Origin: Podospora anserina
Taxonomy: Eukaryota
Length of the DNA stretch: 64,000 nt
Direction of reading: 5' to 3'
Assembly (NCBI GenBank): GCA_017654855.1
Contig: CM030334.1
Location: forward strand, 2,418,001-2,482,000
Shown here: in pieces, positions 49,751-62,600 of the stretch
Position numbering within the stretch: position 1 is the stretch's first letter
How the letters are laid out: each line of letters starts with the position of its first letter
Notes under the pieces: generated by a model
What the model was told of the DNA's origin: nothing
The model's input: only the letters and a program-made list of their open reading frames with translations
The model's database searches: none
Made by a program: the position numbers and the translations under genes

Positions 49751-50720
49751 GCTGTTAGGGGGGGTGGGTTGATCTAGGGGGGATGATTTACTCTGCCATA
49801 TTGTGTAATACCCAGCTGTTTTTGGATATGTCGGGGAGGATGGGGGCGGGGGCGGTTGTTTATTTGAAGCGGGTTTCATATAGTGTTATTGTATACACAC
49901 TTGTACTTACAGAGTAGGAGTAGGGAGGAAAAACAGGACGAAATATCTTTTATTATAGTGTATATGTGTAAAGTATGAATCGAGAGAATGCCATGAGATG
50001 AGGTACCGTCCATCGTGTGCCTGTACATCTGTTCTTGCACTTGTTCCTTTCCTAACTATCTTGGTGTAATATCTTGGTGTAGGCAAAGCGCTTTCAATCC
50101 CATGATCTACACCATGTTGGAGGCTAGGCTATGAAGACTGTCGAGCCGAGGATGGTTTTCTTCTGCAGTCAATGTGTGTGGGTTTGGACAGTTGTCTGTC
50201 GCATTTTCGTAGAGGAGCTGCAACCGAATATGGTACCAGTATTCAGATCGAAGCTCTTCGAAAAGATCACCAAACATCACCACACATCAAAACCCCATTG
50301 CTTTTTGAACAGCTTTTTATTTTGAAATCTGAAATATGTACACAACCTTACAACAAAAATGCCACAGCGACAAAAAAGAAAAAAAGAAAATAAAACTACC
50401 AGAAAATGCTCCCAAATGCCAACCCCCCCGCCCGAACCAGCAGAAGAAACATAGCAAAGAGAAAAAGAAATACCACAAATTTCACCTCTCATCCATCATC
50501 CCCCACCAGCCAGATAACATTTTTGCAATGAACAACGAAAAAATGGTATCGCATCAAAGAAAAAAAATCATGATTCCCTTTCGCTGGAGAGAAAAAACTC
50601 TGATGTCGTGTGATCGCGCTTCCCCCCCTTCTGACCCATGTGAGAGAGAGAAACCCATGCTTTCATTCCTCGTCATCATTATCGTTCCTTTCAACCGCCC
50701 CCGATTGTGTTCACTGTTGC

Positions 50721-53700
50721 TCAAGCAATAGCAGTAAACACCTCCTCAGCAGTCCTCTTGACAATACCACCAGTGACAGGCAAGCTGGTGTTCTTCTCAA
50801 GATACAAATCAACCTCGCGAGCAGCCTGGCGACCCTCATTGATACCCCAAACGATAAGCGACTGTCCACGACGGCAATCACCAGCCGCGAAGACACCCTC
50901 CACATTGGTGCTGTACTTCCCAGCAGGAGTCTTGACGTTCTTGCGAGCGTCCTTCTCGATCTCGTCACCCAAGACACGAGCCTCAGGTCCCAAGAAACCC
51001 ATGGACAAGAGGACGAGGTCGGCAGGGAAGAACTGCTGAGAACCCTCAACCTTCTTCATGTCCCAACCACCGCTGGCAGACTTGGTCCACTCAACACGGA
51101 CGGTGTTGATGCCCTTCACCTTGCCGCTGCCGTCGTCGACAAACTCCTCCGACATGATGCAGAACTCACGGGGGTCCTTGCCTGTGTGTTGAGCCACCTC
51201 AGTGTGACCGTAGTCGACACGGTAGATGCGGGGCCACTGGGGCCACGGGTTGTCGCGCGCACGCTCCGGGGGAGGCTGAGGCAGCAGCTCAAAGTTGACA
51301 ACCGACTTGGCACCGTGGCGGACAGAGGTACCGATGCAGTCGTTACCGGTATCACCACCACCAATGACAACGACGTGCTTGTCCTTGGCAGATATGTAAG
51401 AACCGTCAGCCAGCTCGGAGTCAAGCAGAGACTTGGTGTTCTTGTGAAGGAACTCCATGGCGAAGTGGATGCCCTCGAGGTTGCGGCCCTTGATGGGAAG
51501 GTCACGAGCGACAGTGGCACCGGTGGCGATGATGACAGCATCATTCTCAGCCTTGAGATCCATCAGCTTGATATCGTCGCCGATGGAAACACCGGTCTTG
51601 AAGATGACACCCTCGTCGGCCATGAACTTGGTGCGTCTGTCGACGATGCGCTTGTCAAGCTTCATGTTGGGGATACCATACATGAGCAGACCACCAAGAC
51701 GGTCAGCACGCTCGTAGACGGTGACAAGATGGCCAGCCTTGTTCAGCTGATCGGCGGCAGCAAGACCAGCGGGACCAGAACCAATGATGGCAACCTTCTT
51801 GCCGGTGCGGACCTCGGGAGGGTTGGGAACCATCCAGCCCTTCTCGAAACCTCTGTCAATGATGGCGCACTCGATGGACTTGATGCCAACGGGGTCTTCG
51901 TTGATGCCGAGAACGCAAGCACCCTCGCAGGGAGCAGGGCAAACACGACCAGTGAACTCGGGGAAGTTGTTGGTCATGAGGAGACGGTTGAGGGCGTCCT
52001 GCCACTGGTTCTGGAAAACAAGCTCGTTCCACTTGGGAATGATGTTGGAGATGGGGCAACCAGTATCAGACTGGCAGAAGGGGACACCGCAGTCCATGCA
52101 GCGAGCGGACTGATACTTGAGCTCGTCCTCGTCGAGTCTCTGGGAAAGCTCGGCCCAGTCCTTGACACGCGTCTTGGCGCTGCGGTACTTCTCAGAGCGG
52201 CGCTGGTACTTCATGAAGCCCTTGGTTTTGTCGAGCACAAGAGCCTTCTTCTTGTCACGGGTCTGGTCACCGAAGCTCTCTTCGATATCAGCAAGCTTCT
52301 CGGTGTGCTCCTTCTTGACCTCCTTCTTGGCCTCCTTCTTCTGCTCAACGCCAGAGATGATGGGAAGGTTGTACTCAGCACGCTTGGCCTCAGCAGCCTT
52401 AGCAGCCTCCTCGGCAAGGACGCGCTTGTAGTCAACAGGCAAGACCTTGATGAAACGGGGAAGGGCGCGGTTGAAGTCGACCAGGATGCGGGCCGCAAGC
52501 TCGGAGCCAGTGTAGTGGTGGTGATCCTCGATGAGACCGCGGAGGTAGGCAACTTCCTCGGGGTCCTCGACGGGGCCAGCCTCCACCATTTCGGTGTTGA
52601 GCTTGGTGAGGAAGTCCTGGTGGATGTCAAGGACGTAGGCGATACCACCAGACATACCGGCAGCGAAGTTGCGGCCAGTGCTGCCAAGAATGACGATGCG
52701 GCCACCAGTCATGTACTCGCAACCGTGGTCACCAACACCCTCAACGACAGCGGTGGCACCGGAGTTGCGGACGGCGAAACGCTCAGCAGCAACACCACGG
52801 AAGAAGGCAGTACCGCTGGTAGCACCATACAAGCAGACGTTGCCGATGAGAATGTTCTCCTCAGCCTTGAAGACGGCCGAGCGAGGAGGGTACACGATCA
52901 AGCGACCACCAGACAAGCCCTTGCCGACATAGTCGTTGGCATCACCCTCGAGCTCCAGGGTGATACCAGGAGCGAGGAAAGCACCGAAGGACTGACCGGC
53001 TGAGCCCTTGATGTTGACGTGGATGGTATCCATGGGGAGACCAGCCTCGCCAAATCTCTTGGAGACGTGGTAGGAGAGCGAAGTACCCATGGCACGATCG
53101 GTGTTGACAATGTCGCACTCGATGCGGGAGGGAAGACCCTTGTCAAGAGTCAACTCGGCCTCGGAGATGAGCTTGTTGTCGAGGCGGACGTAGAGGCGAT
53201 GGTCCTGCTTGCGGACGTTGAAGGTGGCGACACCGGGGCGAAGCTTGTGGGCAGGCGTGAGAATGAGAGAAAGATCGATGTTAGCGGTCTTGTTGGTGCG
53301 CAGATCCTCGCGAACCTTGAGGACCTCAGCACGACCGATCATCTCGTTCACAGTGCGGAAGCCAAGCTTGGCCATGATGGCACGGAGCTCGTTGGCAACA
53401 TAGTAGAAGAAGTTGATGACGTGCTCGGGAGTACCAGTGAACTTCTTGCGAAGCTCAGGATCCTGGGTGGCGATACCGACAGGGCAAGTGTTCTGACGAA
53501 AAGGTTAGCAAAACTCGGGAATTGGGGATCTCAAATCACAAACCAAATGACAATTGTGAGTAACGAGGCCATTCCCAAGCTGAAATAGGGACCCTGAGAC
53601 CTGAATCGCGCGATAATCATCCTCCTCAACGTCTGTGACCGTGAAGGGGCGGGCATCGTCAGTGTAATAGGTCTTGGCCATGTTCATCCTCTTGCGAGGC

Positions 53701-56700
53701 ATGAGGAGGTATTGCTGGAACTTAGCAGACCCCTTGCCAAGGTAGCAAATGAAGACATCGCCAGGAATATCTGACCACCCATCCCCAAACTTCTGGTTAT
53801 TGATTTCTCTGTCAATGCCTGTGACAGAGATACCGCAACTCAATGCCAAGTCGCGGAGATCCTCCACGATTTTCCTATGCTCATCGGTGCGCTGCGTAAA
53901 ACGGTAGGTATTGTGTGACTTCACATAGCAGCCATCAGAATCGATGAGGCCAGCGATGACAGCCAGCCGAGTAGCCTCATCCGCAGTCTTGTAGCAGTCG
54001 GGGATACCACCACTCTTGTCACCAAGGAGACCAAGGGAACGGAGGCCATCCTGGATGGGATTCCAGTGATACCCAGGCATCCCCTCCTGACTGGAGATCC
54101 TATATGTGTAAGTATTGTGGTTGGCATAGTGATTAGTCCCCGGAATAGCATCACCAGCCTTCTGCTGGAGGTGCTCGCTGACGTGGAGCGGGCGAGCCCC
54201 GGCTGGCCTGCTGGCGTTGAGCTCCGCAACATGGCTATGAAGCCAGACTTTGACCTCAAGATCGGAGCTGGAGACGATCGGGCCGCCTGTGGACCCATCA
54301 CCAAGCCAGAAGCCCAGGAGCCAGGGGTCGATGGGGACGGACCTCTGGACGTTGGCCGGGTGAGAAGCAAAGGCAAGGGGGGCGCGGTAAAGCTTCAAGT
54401 GATTCTTCTTGACCTGCTTGCTGCACAGCCCCTCGTACCGAGTCACGGTCATCCTGAAGTCATCACCATCTCTGACAATATAAGGGTCAACGAGATGATG
54501 GTGTTCACTCCTCAGCAAGTCATATACCAAGCGACCTTGCTGCTCGGTAGGGAAACGACGACAGATTCTCCGGACACCACCGCATTGGCACCCATTATTC
54601 AGCCCACTTCTCAATTTGGCGAAGCGATCGAGTGTAGCTGACGGGAGTGACATGAGTGATGACTCGCCCAGGGTTGACATAGCGTCTGATGATGCAGCAT
54701 CTGCTTCATGCAATACTGGCATCCTCGAAGGCTGTCCATTGCTGCCTCCAGTAAGCGCCGACTGACTACGGCTGAAGGGGCGATGCCCAAGGGGAATTGG
54801 TGGTGATGAGCCCCCATTCGAGTTGTTCCCTGCGTGTCCAAGGGACGAGTTTGGTCTAGACGTATACTGGGAAGAACCAGGACGGTAAGATCCTCCATAT
54901 GTCGAGGACGGGAGCTCAATGTCACGGAACTGTTGTCCTATCTCAGGTCCGAGGTCCACCAGCTCGACATCATCTACCTCTAAATCTTCCATGGGAACGT
55001 CTGATGGTATGCTGTCCAAATATTCTTGCACAGCACTATGCAGTGCCTCTCTAACCAGGCCAGGCTCATTCTTAAGCTCCTGGTTAGCAATTTGGCGCAG
55101 AAAGTCGTCAAACTCAGGGGGGTTGTCGTCGTGGCCGGCTTCGTGAAAATGTGCTTCCACACGACTGTCGACATAGCTATGGACCTCCTCTTCAGTCGGG
55201 GTATGGTCCTGACTATCGACAAGGTCACGGTAGAGGAAATGAGCAGCCTGATCCCACCTCAGACTGCACGACTCTCTCTCAAGACCGGAACGGTCACAGC
55301 GTGTCAACCAGTAAACCTGCCAGTCGACCCTGTCCCCATTCTGGGAGCAGACAAGGGAGGGGGCAGTGCCATATGTCCGCAGGGGGAGGATATGATCAGG
55401 AGTGCACTTGAAGCTTTTCTTCTCACGAGAATCAAACTCCTTGTAGTGTATCTCCTTCATAGGGCCCCTCTGGACCTCATCCACGGCGAGGACCAGGACC
55501 GGGAGGTGGTTGTCGTCGAGGAGGGTGTCGCCGACATTGATCTCGGCAATCGTCGTGACGCCGGCGAGGGTGCGGACAGTGGTGGAGGGATGTAAACACT
55601 TTCTCATCTTCACGCGCTCAGTTAGCTTGTATTCAACAAGAAATCATCATGGGATGGTGGGCGGTGGATGAAGTGAGGCATCCAAAAGACAGTGACAGGC
55701 GTCCAAAAGACACCTGAAGGCATATTTGGATGTGAAGGAGGCCTATTTTCAATTCAAACAGGCCTTCTTCAAATCCAACCACGCCTCTCTGCATCATTCG
55801 CACGCCTGAATCCATCCGGGCCAGGTGTGAAGGGGTAACAAAAATATCAAAAAGTGATCAACTTACCATGATGCAACCCATCGCAATCAAGGGGGTGGTA
55901 GCGAAACCCCATTCCTCGGCACCAAGCAAGCAAGCAAGGGCGACATCGCGACCAGTGCGGAGCTGACCATCAGTCTGGACAACAACACGGCCACGAAGAT
56001 CGTTCAAGACCAAAGTCTGATGAGTCTCGGCAAGACCCAACTCCCAAGGGAGACCGGCATACTTGATACCAGTCCAGCGCGAAGCACCGGTACCACCATC
56101 GTGACCAGAGATCAAGATGTGATCAGCCTTGGCCTTGGCCACACCAGAGGCAACAATACCAACACCAGTTTCGGACACAAGCTTCACTGACACACGCGAG
56201 CGAGGGCTCGAACACTTGAGGTCGTAAATGAGCTGCTTCAAATCCTCGATCGAGTAAATATCGTGATGAGGAGGAGGCGAGATCAAACCGACACCAGGGG
56301 TCGAGTGACGAGTGCGGGCAATGGACTTGGAGACCTTGTGGCCGGGCAGCTCACCACCCTCACCGGGCTTGGCACCCTGGGCCATCTTGATCTGAAGCTC
56401 ATCAGAGTCGGCAAGGTAGGCGGACGTGACACCGAAACGGCCAGAGGCAACCTGCTTGATGGCAGAGCGCATGGTATCGCCGTTGGGCATGACCTGCGAG
56501 CGCTCAGGATCCTCACCACCTTCACCGGTGTTGGACTTGCCACCAAGTCTGTTCATGGCCACAGCGAGAGTGGAGTGAGACTCCATGGAAATAGAACCAT
56601 AAGACATGGCACCAGTGCAGAAGCGGCGCACGATCTCGGTCCAGGGCTCAACCTGCTCGATGGGGATGGGAGTGGTCTCCTCAAACTTGAAGTCGAGCAT

Positions 56701-59600
56701 GCCGCGGAGCGTGCAGGCCTTGATCTGCTCATACTCGGAGCGGGAGTAGGCCTCGTATGACTTGTCGTTCTTGGTGCGGACGGCGTCCTGGATGTTGGCA
56801 ATCGACGTGGGGTCGTTGATGTGAGCTTCACCACCATCACGCCAGTGGTACTCGCCAGACTCGGGAAGGCCAGCAACACCAACAGTGTAGCGCGAGGGGA
56901 AACCACGCTCGTGGAGGCGGAAAGCGTCCTCAGCAATGAGCTCGAAAGTGATACCCTTGATGCGGGAGGCAGTGCCGCGGAAGCAGCGGTCGACAACGCT
57001 GTCGTCAACACCGAGAGCCTCGAAGATCTGAGCACCCTTGTAACTGGCGAGGGTAGAAATACCCATCTTGCTCATGACCTTCAAGATACCGCCGTCAACA
57101 GAGTGCTTGTAGTTGTGGATCAGCTGCTCGTCGGTGAGCTTCTTCTTGATGAGCTTCTCCTTGTTGAGCTTGAGGATGCACTCCATCGCAAGGTAGGGGT
57201 TGATGGCATCCACGCCGTACCCGAGAAGCACACACATATGGTGAACCTCACGAGCTTCGGCAGTCTCAACGACGAGAGCAGCCATGGAACGCCACTTGTT
57301 GGCAACAAGATGATGGTGAACCATACCAGAAGCCAACAGGGCAGAGACAGCAACGCGATCCTTGGATGTGTTGCGGTCAGTCAGGACAATGATGCGATCG
57401 CGAGCCTCGATGGCGGCAGTGGCCTCCTTGCAGATGTAGTCAAGGTGGTTGATGTAGCCCTGGACACCCTCGGTCTTGGGGAAGGTGATGTCAATGGTCT
57501 TGACGGTCCACTCGGGGTAGAGCTTGGACATGTTGTTCAAGGCATTGAACTCCTCAATGGAAAGGATGGGGCTGGGCAGGAGGAGTCTGCCGCACTGGGA
57601 AGCATCCATCTCCAAAAGGTTGCCCTGAGGTCCGACATAGCACTCTAGAGACATGACGATGGACTCTCTGATGGGATCGATAGGAGGGTTGGTGACCTGA
57701 GCGAACAGCTGACGGAAGTACTCATAGAGCAGCTTGGGGGCCTGAGACAGGCATGCAAGAGGAGCATCGTTACCCATGGAACCGAGAGCCTCCTTCTCGT
57801 CAGAGGCCATCGGAGCGAGCAGCAAGCTGACCTGTTCAAAGGTGTAGCCGAAAGCATGCAGAAGAGGGTCCTCCTGGAGCTTGAAGTCATCAGGCTTGGC
57901 GGCGAGCACAACGCTCTTGTCCTCGCCAACCTTCTCCAAGACATTGGGCATGGTAATCAGGTTCTCATCGAGCCAGGATCTGAAGTCCTGACGGGTGGAA
58001 ACAGCAGCCTTGAGCTCGCTGTCATCGATAATACGACCGGCGTGAGTGTCGACGAGAAGCATGCGGCCAGGCTGCAGACGGCCCTTCTGAATGATTCTTT
58101 CGGGCTCAACGGGGATGGTACCAACTTCGGAAGCGCAGATGATGCGGTCATCATCCATCACGTAGAAGCGGCAAGGGCGAAGACCGTTACGGTCAAGGTT
58201 GGCACCGCAGAAACGACCATCGGCAAAGGTGAAGAGAGCAGGACCGTCCCAGGGCTCCATCTGGCAAGCAGCCCACTCGTAGAATGCGGCCTTCTTGGGG
58301 TCCATGGCACTGTTGCCCTGCCAGGCCTCGGGGACCATGAGCATGACGGCCTCTGGGAGAGAAAGAACACCATTGATGGTGAGGAGCTCCAACACGTTGT
58401 CAAAGGCAGCGGAATCAGAACCACCATCCTCAACGACCGGGTAGAGGTCCTCGAGCTCATCACCGAAAATGTCAGACTGCATGACACCCTCACGAGCGCG
58501 CATCCAGTTCTTGTTACCACGGAGAGTGTTGATTTCACCTGGGGTTGAAGTTAGCATGTGATGTCGGCCTTGCAAATCCAGTCTACTGCTTACCGTTGTG
58601 AGCGGCCCATCTCAGGGGCTGAGCACGGTCCCAAGATGGGAAGGTGTTGGTAGAGAAACGCGAGTGTACCAAGGCAAAGTGCGCCTCATAATCAGCATTC
58701 ACCAAATCGTGGTAGTATTGGTAGACTTGTACTGGAGCCAACTGTCCCTTGTAAACAATGTTCTTGTTCGACAGAGAGCAGATGTAGAACCAGTTCTGAA
58801 GCCCGACGGTGCGGGTGGCACGCTTCCGGAGGACATAGAGTTGTCTCTCGAACAACCTGTCATCGAACTTGTCTGCGTCCGTAATCTCAGGAGCATCCCC
58901 AGAGCCATAGGCAGACTGGAGAACCACAAAGGGCTGCAGAATGGTAGGCTCGCGAGAAGCAGCAGCCGGACCAAGGAGAGTGGAGTCCACGGGAAGCTCT
59001 CGCCACCCGAGGACTCTCAAGCCCAAGGACTCGGCAATATCTTCCAACTGCCGCTTGGACTCTTGCAGGGTCTCTGGATCAGGCTTGAAGAACAGATTGC
59101 CCACAGCGTACTGTCCCAATGGAGGAAGCTTGATGCCCTCCTCACGCTCAAAGTTCTTGACAAAGAACTTGTGGGGAATGGATGTCATGACACCAGCACC
59201 ATCACCATCTCGCGCATCAGATCCCACGGCACCACGATGGGTCATGTTGCATAGAAGGTTTCGCGCTGTCAAGGTTAGTTATTGATTCGACATGACCGCT
59301 GTCAGGAGAACTCACCATCGCTAACGATTTTGTGGCTAGCCTTGCCCTTGATGTGGCAAGCAAAGCCCACACCGCACGCATCTTTCTCGAGTGAGGGATC
59401 ATACAACCCCCTGGAGGTAAAGTGTTAACAAAGCAAAGTATTCAGCCGAACCAAGGGGACACATACTGCTTCACCGGAAGAGCACCAGCCCACGAGTCGT
59501 TGTTTTCTGTCTGGTATTCATAGGGCTGGTAGTTGTATTGCTCAGACTCTAGGTGAGTCTGTCGATCATCAAATTCTGGGGTCAGCTTGATCTCGCCCAT
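50721..59600 (-). CDS. glt1: NADH-dependent glutamate synthase precursor containing an intein; exons 59600-59467, 59410-59316, 59265-58594, 58538-55867, 55607-53544, 53492-50721 (2802 aa precursor, 2120 aa after intein removal)
   Basis: DACGVGF (Ntn Cys), [27 protein letters not shown], Fe-S motif GCIM|MRK[intein][13 protein letters not shown], GltD-like C-terminal part ([23 protein letters not shown]). The exon lengths sum to 8409 nt, in frame. Confidence 0.96.
53553..55598 (-). mobile_element. GLT1 intein with LAGLIDADG homing endonuclease, 682 aa
   Basis: An in-frame insertion splits the conserved MRK^CHLNTC. It starts CLHPST (block A), has block [18 protein letters not shown] helices [11 protein letters not shown] and [12 protein letters not shown], block H-like [14 protein letters not shown], and ends LVTHN followed by +1 Cys. 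Confidence 0.96.
55676..55828. repeat. Exactly 21-bp-phased hexamer array with internal dyad symmetry, inside glt1 intron 4 (55866-55608)
   Basis: AGGCAT 55676, AGGCGT 55697, AGGCAT 55718, AGGCCT 55739, AGGCCT 55760, ACGCCT 55781, ACGCCT 55802, AGGTGT 55823. 55726-55744 matches the reverse complement of 55760-55778 at 17 of 19 positions. Confidence 0.8.
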
Positions 59601-62600
59601 GCTAGGCAAGCTTCTGCTTGTCAAGACGCGAAGGAGTGTCGCTTGTCTGACGTGACCTGGCCAACGGGCGGGGTATCAAAAAGCAGCTTGATAACTGCGG
59701 ATGATGGAAGGGTCTACAGGATACGAGATATGATTAGCTCCAAGACTATACGAAGTGATTCTTTGATCCAAGGTGTTAGTCAAAGACAAGATAGTGAGTG
59801 AGGTATCCTCGAAATCCGGCGCTGTGAGTGAAATCTGACAGATGGGTGGTGGGAAACTGTTTAAAGTTCGAGGGAGAGGACCAATGGTCCAGTGTGGATG
59901 TGCGGGTTACGCCAGGTCGCCGCGAGACAGGTGAAAAGCCCTGAAGGCAGTCACGGAACTCAATTGAGGGCTTTGTGGCCCAAAGCTTGAGCTGCCAGCT
60001 ACGTCCCGTATCCGAACGCTGTGTGTAGCCACCAGACAGGACCATCACCCCACCCAGAGCCGGTCAACCACAGCCAGAATGCTGAATAGTTGTTATCAGA
60101 GGCAGAAGGTGGCCGACAAATGCCCAGCGTGGGATCGTCCCAAGTATTGGGGGACGGGTCTAGAATGTCTCGAGGCATCGGATATTGGCGTGGCATGATG
60201 CATGCTCCTTGATAGGCAGCTCTCCTGAGCCATAGCTCCCAAGACTTGTGATGCAATCTGGACCATCCAAAGAACGGTAGAACCCCAACCGGCGCGGGAT
60301 GACGACAGGCGTGTAGCACCCAGAGGCCTTATCGTGTGTCCATGCGGCTATATTCCCGCAGCTCTGATAGGAGCACCCATCCTATCATCGATAGGCGAGA
60401 AGCGAAGCCTTTCATGACGCCTGGCTGTCCTTGCCGACATGTACCAAGCACCAAACGGCGTCGGCACGTCGTAACGCAATATGGAGGCGGGGTGGGAGGG
60501 GCGGGGGGGCCAAGACCGGGATTGGGAGTGTGAGAGCGGGGGAGGGTGTGTGTGTTCCCCCACCACTAGCACCACCACCCCCTCCATTCCGCATCCACAT
60601 GCGAAATCCACCATGTCATATCCACACTTCGGAGCACAAGCAGAGACGCCCGCGTTCGCCCGTGTTCGCCCGGTGCCTGCCGCCCAAATATGAATGGCAG
60701 GCGAGGAGTTGCTTGTTTCTTGGGAGGAGGGGTTTCGGCTTCGTTGTGGGATAAATTGGATGCGCCGGAGTGGTTATCGGGGCCCCGCAGTTGGGTGGAC
60801 ATGCTGAGTTTCGACGTCATCCAGAGATAGAGCTTCGGAAGATCCCTTGGCGGCGCCCGAGACCTTGGTGGGCATGGAGCGGGGTGTTGATGTTTGTCGC
60901 ATGCTGGCCAGATTGTCCATTGCCTTCGATCAAAGGCTGTCGTAGTTCTCACGAGGTGGCCGAGCTCTTGAGATACCTCGAAACATATCTTGTCTTTCAT
61001 CACATCGTGTCTGGGGCTGGGTGTTGCGAGGGGGATGGGAAGGGTTGCCGATCCGAAGAGAACTTACCGTTAGAACTAGCTATACACTCCAAGAGAGAGT
61101 GCTGTTGCTTCACGGGTCGAGGTGGGACTCGAGGTTGAGTGGTGGTTGTTTGGAGGGGGAAGTGCGGAATCGTGAAAGAAAGAGGGAGGAGGAGGAGGAG
61201 GAGGAGAGAGAAGGTGGTCGTGGAGGGGCGGCAAGCCTGCTTTTATGAAGAGAGCTCGGAGACGGCCGATGGCAGCAAGCTATCCGTTCTGGCCAAGGAT
61301 GCTGCCCAGGAGCTTTGCGTGTTGGATCTGGGGTTCTCGTTTCTCAATTGAGGCAGAACAACCGGAGCGGAGAGCAGACGTAGCCAAGACAACCTGGATA
61401 CAAGGGGGAAGATGGATGGTGGAAAGTGACCCGAGTGCTAAAGGCAATGACATGTGGCTGCTGGTGTTGAAGGTGTGTTGCTGCGAAGGGTGAGTGGGGG
61501 GAGGTGGGGAGACACCTTCCACCTGGTCGCTTATTCGTGGGTGGGGTATTCATCCAGTGCACTCCATCTGCTACTAGCTACCCTACATCTGCCATCTCGG
61601 ATGGTCTCCCACATGCTACAATATTGAGTGGCATTCATAGCTCACCATCTCTCTCCTCTCCTGCAGGTTGCTACGGTTTGTGTAAAAAGCGCGCACGCAT
61701 TTGAAGCTGTCTGACGGTGTCACCGCATGGAAGAACTGTCCGTTGCCCTGGTCCGGTGGCTTGTCATCGTCCTATTCATGTCGAATCAGAATCACTGGAC
61801 ACCGGCAATGTGAAGTGTTTGATGTGAGTATTTCCGCGGTCACAGTAACTTTATACACTTGTAAAATAAATCCAGTAATACCATCCGAACAGTTTCAGGC
61901 GTAATACCTAGGAGTAGGACACATCAAGACGGGCCGACCTCCTTCTCGGCGTACTGGAGAAAGTGATGATAAAGAACACGAGCCTGAAGATTCCGGTCAG
62001 CATGTTCTCCGCTTCCGGCTGCCAAGCATAACAGATATTGATGAGAGATGATATTGCCAGCGAATCTGGGAGGTTGAGTGAAATCACTTGTGTAAAAGTG
62101 TTTTGCCATGGAAATACAGGCCTGATGCCCGGTTGGAGGCGTTGGTAGGTGTTCTTCATGAACACAGCGGGTTGTGCACCCCACACCATGGCTGCATCTT
62201 GCAGAACCAATAATGGACTAGCGCAAGATCCACTGGCATCGCCTGCATGCGAAGCATCCACAGCATGCCTCAGCATCCTACCATCCCTGTCCGGCGCCAG
62301 GGTTCAAAAAAGTTGGGCCGTCCCAGTCCCGCAACATTCTCACCAATCAGATAACACCGTTTTCAAAGACGACCGGCCGATGTCGCCAGCTCAAGCGCCA
62401 AACCCAGGACACCAGGGAAAGCGTGCGGAGGAACGTCTCTGGGGTCCCTGTCAGCCGGTATCGTTCAACATGTCCGAAAACACCAGACAGCAATCACGGC
62501 GATCCGCTTGAATAGACATGGAAGTAACAGAGAAAATCGCTGACACATGATACCAGCTAGCCAGATCAACATGGGGATCCCACCACGTGCCGCGAATAGG

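Follow-up and report, generated by a model that had tools for sequence, protein, structure and literature searches.

The closest described relatives of the locus treated here are the fungal GLT1 inteins, among them the Pan GLT1 intein of Podospora anserina (Poulter, Goodwin and Butler 2007, as cited in the available parts of PMC5056185 and PMC1508164). The latter source, from 2006, describes in its available part a fungal nuclear intein whose C-side has a spliceosomal intron nearby, an intron also present at some empty sites. Elsewhere, 'intein-primed' intron gain has been proposed for PRP8 of Bathycoccus (Monier et al. 2013, PMC3749507, available part), and an intron has been proposed as a barrier to homing in Anaeramoeba paralogs (PNAS 2023, PMC10710043, available part). 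The stretch analysed here, called the window, comprises 64,000 nucleotides (nt) of P. anserina DNA (GCA_017654855.1, contig CM030334.1, forward-strand positions 2,418,001 to 2,482,000) and carries on its minus strand the six-exon gene GLT1, which encodes NADH glutamate synthase and holds the intein between two closely spaced introns. Around the same insertion point, introns of fungal and fungal-like GLT1 genes occupy seven positions read in DNA, and about 19 within 32 nt once read-through of unspliced predictions is added; this swarm may well have been left by a prolonged conflict with the homing endonuclease that the intein encodes.

The intein of the window is the already described Pan GLT1 intein. 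It is inserted after codon 1194, between K1194 and C1195 of GCIMMRK/CHLNTCPVG, and its removal restores GCIMMRKCHLNTCPVG, identical to intein-less homologs and to P0045, the public model of 2120 amino acids (aa) from P. anserina strain S, from which the intein-free host protein of the window shows 0 differences. The parts of the insertion and its surroundings are as follows, in window coordinates, with intron positions given as codon.phase of the host protein.

53553..55598, minus strand: intein, 682 aa, 2046 nt (TGT to AAT), Cys1 to His-Asn (open frame, Pfam, PI-SceI match)
55599..55607, minus strand: host codons ATG AGA AAG (M1192 R1193 K1194), N-side half of the micro-exon (sequence)
53544..53552, minus strand: host codons TGT CAT TTG (C1195 H1196 L1197), C-side half of the micro-exon (sequence)
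55608..55866, minus strand: intron 4, 259 nt, GTAAGT to GTGAAG, phase 0, position 1191.0, 9 nt upstream of the intein (contig joints)
53493..53543, minus strand: intron 5, 51 nt, GTTTGT to GTCAG, phase 0, position 1197.0, 9 nt downstream of the intein (contig joints)
55392..55406, minus strand: splicing block B, CTPDH (TxxH), intein residues 65-69 (sequence)
54291..54320, minus strand: first LAGLIDADG motif, acidic residue kept (sequence)
53928..53960, minus strand: second LAGLIDADG motif, acidic residue kept (sequence, Pfam, PI-SceI alignment)

The removal of both introns from RNA is supported by the contigs of four public runs (X1, X3, X7 and X15) aligned to positions 50500-60000. The label 'RNA' for X1, X3 and X7 is a guess, and the loss of five GT..AG stretches from their contigs is the signature of spliced RNA. 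All three of these RNA-like runs, which come from three studies, show the exact loss of 53493-53543 and of 55608-55866 together with the three 5' introns, and all three retain the intein sequence; the single DNA-like run, X15, is collinear with the window and has none of the joints (0/1). The mature mRNA thus contains an exon of 2064 nt in which the intein is framed by 9 nt on either side. Both introns carry U2-type features, namely GT..AG ends and a branch-like CTAAC near the 3' end (GCTAAC 12 nt before the end of intron 4 and TGCTAAC 11 nt before the end of intron 5), in addition to their removal from RNA. The original prediction, made from the window's letters, had placed the intein in an 18-nt micro-exon encoding MRKCHL, with phase-0 introns numbered 4 and 5 lying 9 nt away on each side, and had named RNA as the check on both junctions; sequence, spliced contigs and P0045 bear out each of these points, and the three RNA-like runs confirm both junctions.

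Two of the five GLT1 introns thus lie inside 19 of 6360 nt (binomial P=9e-5), and no other intein flanked by introns on both sides was found among the sampled alleles. The two introns differ in their distribution. Position 1197.0 is also occupied in two intein-less loci (L005 and L018), and position 1191.0 was found in the window and in P0163 of P. bellae-mahoneyi (a cluster of 24 sequences) only. On these occurrences the C-side intron 5 is taken to sit at one of the old, widespread positions, and the N-side intron 4 looks young and specific to the P. anserina group.

The wider context of the insertion point was read from metagenome loci fetched with the first 197 aa of exon 6, a search that gave 577 relatives, of which the best 80 were kept; the junction was read in L001-L022, and introns were mapped in L001-L019 (at least 69% identity) out of the 80 loci. 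No intein was found by tblastn with the window intein in the 19 fungal-like loci. Fourteen of these 19 intein-less loci carry an intron inside the motif, each with GT..AG ends and each restoring GCIMMRKCHLNTCPVG exactly upon removal, at the following positions, all read in DNA.

L009: position 1192.0, after MM
L004: position 1193.2, within the Lys codon
L007: position 1194.0, the exact insertion point of the intein
L001 and L010: position 1196.0, after His
L011-L017: position 1196.1, within the Leu codon
L005: position 1197.0, after Leu, as in the window
L018: positions 1196.0 and 1197.0, two introns 3 nt apart

The near-site introns are 34-98 nt long, except for one of 337 nt in L018. That locus (L018:5603-5999) reads CAT, a GT..AG intron of 58 nt, CTG (Leu), the GT..AG intron of 337 nt and AAC, with an apparent exon of 3 nt; if the whole is taken as one intron of 398 nt, the invariant Leu is lost. 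The introns of L009 are very short (33-37 nt), with 34 nt at the conserved position 300.1 and 34 nt at 1192.0. The five loci without an intron at the site are L002, L003, L006, L008 and L019, of which L002 and L003 are mRNA-sized and intron-free throughout and were therefore treated as probable transcript contigs, uninformative on introns.

The six positions of the loci and position 1191.0 of the window make seven DNA positions. Seven of 41 called positions therefore fall in a 19-nt span that has the insertion point at its centre, out of 6360 nt (binomial P=4.4e-11), and random placement put seven positions into any span of 19 nt in 0 of 200,000 trials; calls at codons 1580-1596, a variable linker where they are probably indels, were kept among the 41, which makes the figure conservative. 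The introns at 62.2, 76.1, 300.1 and 2078.2 occupy an identical position in every locus that has them.

Further positions come from proteins predicted on unspliced DNA. Many proteins from metagenomes and run assemblies are plain open reading frame (ORF) calls on genomic DNA, which start after 76.1 or 300.1 and stop at 2078.2, and the residue at which such a call runs from exon into intron reveals the phase: Val (GTN) marks phase 0; Cys, Arg, Ser or Gly (NGT) marks phase 1; and in phase 2 the expected residue gives way to its xxG neighbour, followed by a stop or by Tyr-Val (GTAAGT or GTATGT). Applied to the window and 18 loci with a state verified in DNA, this read-through rule was right in 19 of 19. 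Among the 120 best matches to exon 4, 99 could be assigned to 18 positions, from 1191.0 to 1201.1, which are to be read as an enumeration and not as frequencies, because the search is biased towards ORFs whose ends lie close to the junction; the other 21 comprise three with the intein, nine contiguous, three without the motif and six unplaced. One further protein, P0017, contributes position 1197.2. DNA and read-through together thus give 19 positions within 32 nt, at offsets from the insertion point of -9, -6, -5, -4, -3, -1, 0, +2, +4, +5, +6, +7, +8, +9, +10, +11, +13, +14 and +22 nt. The intron at 2078.2, used as a control, gave a single signature in 17 of 17 broken predictions and a single position in five DNA loci.

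It could be argued that the read-through classes are assembly errors, contig ends or quirks of gene callers, and that just the seven DNA positions are real. Twelve of the 19 positions are indeed inferred from protein read-through without DNA, which tells against the conflict as well, and a predicted stop looks the same as a contig end in protein records. The success of the rule in all 19 DNA cases nevertheless makes this explanation very improbable, as do the specific signatures in phase 2 (His to Gln or Cys to Trp before a stop or Tyr-Val) and the membership of several classes, which are clusters of many members on long contigs; the seven DNA positions by themselves give P=4e-11.

The GLT1 motif at the insertion point is invariant in every homolog seen, and its three cysteines (C-x5-C-x4-C) presumably bind a 3Fe-4S cluster. 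Methionine has one codon, and lysine, cysteine and histidine have two each, so that little synonymous change is possible and an intron is therefore the main route to an altered DNA target. With the protein motif fixed, an allele would escape cutting only through non-coding DNA placed inside the recognition sequence; alternatively or additionally, mis-repaired cuts would yield insertions that survive only if they are spliced. On these grounds the swarm of introns is read as the mark left by a prolonged conflict with the homing endonuclease of the intein, to which we assign a probability of roughly 0.55. Introns at offsets of -6 to +5 nt were, in this sample, confined to intein-less alleles, which would fit a conflict of this kind. 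The reading, if right, matches the proposals made for Anaeramoeba, Bathycoccus and Eupenicillium, whose prp8 gene reportedly carries an intron in place of an intein (a case credited to Elleuche 2009 and cited alongside the others).

A neutral history would instead have one or two old introns near codon 1196 that slid, or that were lost and regained, owing to features of the local sequence such as an abundance of near-consensus splice sites in ATG ATG AGR AAR TGY CAY YTN AAY, with the intein merely sharing a conserved site; the introns would then have no bearing on homing. Such a history would account for the finding that 1196.0, 1196.1, 1196.2 and 1197.0, all within 3 nt, are the commonest positions (63 of the 99 classified predictions) and that 1196.1 is constant in seven basidiomycete-like loci, and it draws a hint of common descent from the likeness, slightly above that of shuffles, of intron 5 to the 1196.0 intron of L001 (z 2.8) and of the introns of L010 and L018 at 1196.0 (z 2.5). 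It sits poorly with the other GLT1 introns, which do not slide (17 of 17 at 2078.2, and exact positions at 62.2, 76.1 and 300.1), and with the coexisting pairs in L018 and in the window, whose members are spaced by 3 nt and 18 nt respectively and are therefore separate introns. Moreover, positions also lie on the N-side and exactly at the insertion point, and the cluster is centred on a site that was fixed beforehand. Neutral drift of this sort is accordingly doubtful, if far from negligible. Intron sequences are saturated even at conserved positions (the closest pair at the same position gives z 0-1.5).

The intron found exactly at the insertion point, position 1194.0, in L007 and in six predictions also invites the idea, raised in the available part of PMC10710043, that near-site introns are shrunken inteins which gained splice signals and are now removed from RNA. 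Most positions are offset from the insertion point, and cutting out a remnant there would leave the host codons unrestored; apart from the 337-nt intron of L018 the introns have ordinary lengths, and the tblastn search with the intein came back empty in the 19 loci. Decay of inteins into introns therefore has very little to recommend it as an explanation of the swarm.

Strict exclusion, as described for Bathycoccus and Anaeramoeba, would leave an allele with either an intein or an intron and never both. Both were found together in the window, in P0002-5 and in P0016, P0017 and P0018: among the intein-bearing ORF calls, P0002-5 and P0018 have an intron at 1196.1, P0016 at 1197.0 and P0017 at 1197.2. 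No N-side intron occurs in any of the intein-bearing ORF calls, and nine of them outside the yeasts lack an intron on either side.

In an IQ-TREE tree of the host protein (42 rows), the window falls into a strongly supported clade with Fusarium and Diaporthe proteins, and its nearest rows are L001, which has an intron at 1196.0 and no intein, and P0002-5, with the intein and an intron at 1196.1. A FastTree tree of 163 rows was used for counting turnover, with branches of support at least 95 kept and the rest resolved in the most favourable way. Under this rule the 121 intein-less rows require at least 40 changes among 20 states, and the presence of the intein requires at least five changes on the same tree. 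The original prediction had called for intron and intein presence to be mapped on a tree that would order their gains, and had held that introns both ancient and ubiquitous, and without effect on cleavage, would refute a role in resistance. The part of this mapping that was carried out puts the introns neither as ancient and fixed nor as ubiquitous at one place, and the resistance idea is therefore still alive.

States of intein and intron are interleaved among near-identical host proteins in the FastTree tree, as would be expected if the introns were hitch-hikers or helpers, co-converted at each homing event and so marking allele lineages that spread sideways within groups of species. Flanking markers are co-converted during homing, and both introns of the window, with just 9 nt between each of them and the insertion point, would be carried along with the intein in this way. 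A further point for sideways spread is P0007, whose intein goes with those of other classes and whose host protein goes with L010 and L002. Most intron positions, however, occur in alleles without an intein, and the nine unspliced non-yeast predictions with an intein and no flanking intron are likewise difficult to reconcile with hitch-hiking, which is distinctly unlikely as a general explanation.

Several observations weigh against a conflict as the origin of the swarm. Coexistence of intein and intron occurs in at least five lineages, and exclusion is therefore not strict. The proposals on homing and cleavage rest on endonuclease activity predicted from motifs. Independent gain of introns is indistinguishable from sliding by intron sequence, and the preference of the exon 4 search for ORFs ending near the junction bears on how often each position seems to occur. 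L008 and the yeast-like loci L006 and L019 have no intron at the site, and the seven basidiomycete-like loci, all at 1196.1, form a stable clade with no swarm. Intein-less unspliced predictions without an intron at the site also exist (P0059, P0124, P0136, P0150 and P0156), and the 120 exon 4 matches leave six unplaced, nine contiguous of unknown kind and three without the motif. The FastTree topology is weak, with support below 80 on 67 of 147 inner branches. In phylogenetic pairs, a test of the intein against a near-site intron did not reach significance (of five pairs, 0 pointed in the same direction and about 2 in the opposite one; median p 0.5), a result that also favours the neutral history.

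The endonuclease itself appears to have been maintained. The intein matches Pfam LAGLIDADG_3 with E 1e-4 and 22.9 bits, against a cut-off of 22.5, and its best solved relative is PI-SceI (E 7e-7, intein residues 512-682 aligned). Identity to 14 relatives is 46-68% in the endonuclease part, generally on par with the splicing parts, and just 25-55% in the middle part of about 290 aa. The identity of the endonuclease part and the intact acidic residues suggest that it is still under constraint, and from these sequence features we infer an enzyme active now or recently. The residues of class 1 splicing are all present (Cys1, CTPDH as the TxxH motif of block B, THN at 680-682 and Cys+1). The translated precursor would, from what is known of the family, splice itself by way of Cys1, TxxH, His-Asn and Cys+1.

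LAGLIDADG enzymes recognise about 14-40 bp, and the recognition site of PI-SceI is about 31 bp. Centred on the insertion point, a LAGLIDADG target of 14-40 bp would probably run beyond the 18 exon bases and into one or both introns. This would be harmless within the species, where alleles share their introns, and would hinder homing between species. The original prediction had offered three alternatives, namely a target confined to the 18 exon bases, a target extending into fast-evolving intron sequence, or introns acting as host resistance that breaks up the homing site, and had noted that repair would have to cross two divergent introns. The resistance idea has been published for other inteins; the introns of the window coexist with the intein and give the present allele no protection. 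The crossing of two divergent introns is relevant only to transfer between species, since co-conversion would take the introns along within one.

A stronger form of the conflict, which we put forward tentatively and somewhat short of an even chance, would make the fungal GLT1 site the scene of an arms race in which the endonuclease keeps cutting an invariant coding motif, hosts escape by new or shifted introns inside the recognition sequence, many of them maybe arising from mis-repair of the same cut, and the endonuclease or the intein-bearing allele follows. If true, an arms race would yield about 19 positions within 32 nt and alleles walled in by introns, as in P. anserina, and it would represent a natural, repeatable gain of introns by double-strand breaks and selection at a site known in advance.

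A search with the intein found that 24 other GLT1 proteins carry one at this site (after MR[KR]), at 40-62% identity, and the named carriers include Fusarium lateritium, Diaporthe citri, Elaphomyces granulatus, Cirrosporium and Sclerophora; chitin synthase inteins were also matched, at about 34-42% identity. In the intein tree the window intein groups with those of P0002-5 (support 99), which would fit descent within a small group. With the chitin synthase inteins as its root, this tree has the GLT1 intein of Diaporthe citri (P0024) as the first, long-branched GLT1 offshoot, and this placement and that of P0007 hint at transfer between sites or lineages.

Intron 4 is unusual among the introns of the gene, being five times as long as the other four (50-56 nt). 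It contains the following repeat.

55696..55808, minus strand: inverted repeat in intron 4, arms of 53 nt, 72% complementary, loop of 7 nt (repeat search)

The predicted fold of the intron has -93.8 kcal/mol (z -5.9), and 0 of 200 shuffles were equally stable. Above-regular length and a stable, symmetrical predicted structure are traits of introner-like elements and symmetrical introns, and intron 4 shows both. No second copy of it was found in the 64-kb window or in L001-L019, and Rfam gave no match with E up to 1 across 53400-56000. Two observations made post hoc are that ATGATG, the sequence of the host codons where intron 4 is inserted, occurs twice within the intron, against an estimated 0.08 copies from the window-wide rate, and that 15 nt close to the 3' end of the intron show 80% complementarity to the region of the 5' splice site. 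Run X1 also holds a separate contig of 160 nt within intron 4 (55652-55811) at a depth of 2.3, compared with 38 for the spliced transcript contig, which could be unspliced precursor or excised intron. As for intron 5, its start (GTT TGTGATTTGA) nearly duplicates the preceding exon (TGTCATTTG) in a manner resembling tandem duplication (window 53531-53552, minus strand). The likeness of intron 5 to the empty site is not significant, being reached by 114 of 2000 shuffles, and amounts to a hint of duplication only; that of intron 4 is not significant either (395 of 2000).

The remaining structure of the gene is as follows.

50721..59600, minus strand: GLT1 coding region, six exons, precursor of 2802 aa (2120-aa host protein and 682-aa intein)
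59411..59466, minus strand: intron 1, position 44.2 (RNA-like contigs, cut +1)
59266..59315, minus strand: intron 2, position 76.1 (RNA-like contigs; conserved in other loci)
58539..58593, minus strand: intron 3, position 300.1 (RNA-like contigs, cut +2; conserved in other filamentous ascomycete-like loci)
55867..58538, minus strand: exon 4, ending in GCIM (codon 1191), last codons GGT TGC ATC ATG (sequence and contigs)
50721..53492, minus strand: exon 6, opening with AAC ACT TGC CCT and running to the stop (sequence and contigs)

With introns at 44.2, 76.1, 300.1, 1191.0 and 1197.0, the six exons join into a coding sequence of 8409 nt with a single, terminal stop, and proteins named Podospora anserina match the C-terminal exon at 100% identity. 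In X3 and X7 the transcript contigs depart from the window at 59714, 114 nt upstream of the ATG, with unlike letters beyond, and that of X1 stays collinear past this point; the divergence may reflect an intron in the 5' untranslated region or an alternative first exon.

Some public gene models falter at this site. Those of the closest named relatives, Cercophora samala, Apiosordaria backusii and Triangularia verruculosa, have 2116-2120 aa and retain MRKCHL. P0044, a model of 2114 aa from P. anserina S mat+, equals the host protein minus MRKCHL and reads GCIM/NTCPVG, having taken both introns, the micro-exon and the intein together as one intron. The direct joint of exon 4 to exon 6 that this form implies is absent from the contigs of the four runs, which is no proof against it, as contigs drop rare forms. 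The model of P0163 ends inside intron 4 (GCIM followed by VS). The annotated models of P0056 (Immersiella caudata, MRKCHCLNTCPVG) and P0112 (Eutypa lata, MRKCHCPVG) are odd exactly at the GLT1 motif, probably through mis-set splice sites of a near-site intron.

The origin of new spliceosomal introns is an old open question, for which double-strand-break repair is a leading proposal with little direct evidence. At the GLT1 site, a site-specific endonuclease, an unchangeable protein target and dozens of independent intron states meet at one known place, and the host fungus is crossable and transformable, which makes the link between breaks and introns testable. Annotation is affected as well: gene models can err at such sites, and one public model drops six essential residues along with the intein.

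Compared with described systems, the intein of the window is a member of the fungal GLT1 inteins, sharing the host gene, the site MRK/C, full length, the LAGLIDADG endonuclease and the aspartates of blocks C and E, with no difference noted; the available parts of PMC5056185 and PMC1508164 are silent on flanking introns. The distant PI-SceI (yeast VMA1 intein; 1um2, 1dfa) aligns over its residues 283-454, a span that takes in the second LAGLIDADG motif as well as the C-terminal His-Asn. It differs in lying in another host gene, a yeast gene without introns nearby, and the window intein is larger, with its poorly conserved middle of about 290 aa. Intron 4, which lies in a Sordariomycete, resembles introner-like elements (PMC3609843, available part) and the symmetrical (stw)introns of Hypoxylaceae (PMC8469720, available part) in being long, stable and symmetrical; these are generic traits of such introns, whose defining trait is the presence of many copies per genome. 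The intein of PMC1508164 has an intron on one side only, and the available part of that source reports no N-side intron and no shifting positions, unlike the window. A literature search found no paper on introns around the GLT1 intein, with Poulter 2007 and all supplements outside the search, so that the 2007 paper may describe them; it likewise found no intein walled in on both sides and no swarm of intron positions at one homing site. Already known, then, are the intein, its junctions (from a public gene model), an intron beside an intein site and the idea of a barrier. The available parts of the Bathycoccus and Anaeramoeba sources describe, as at GLT1, introns at or a few nt from the insertion site in intein-less copies. 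Those systems have one or few positions and mutual exclusion, whereas GLT1 shows about 19 positions, repeated changes and coexistence of intein and intron, and it is this many-position intron context around the GLT1 site that appears to be new.

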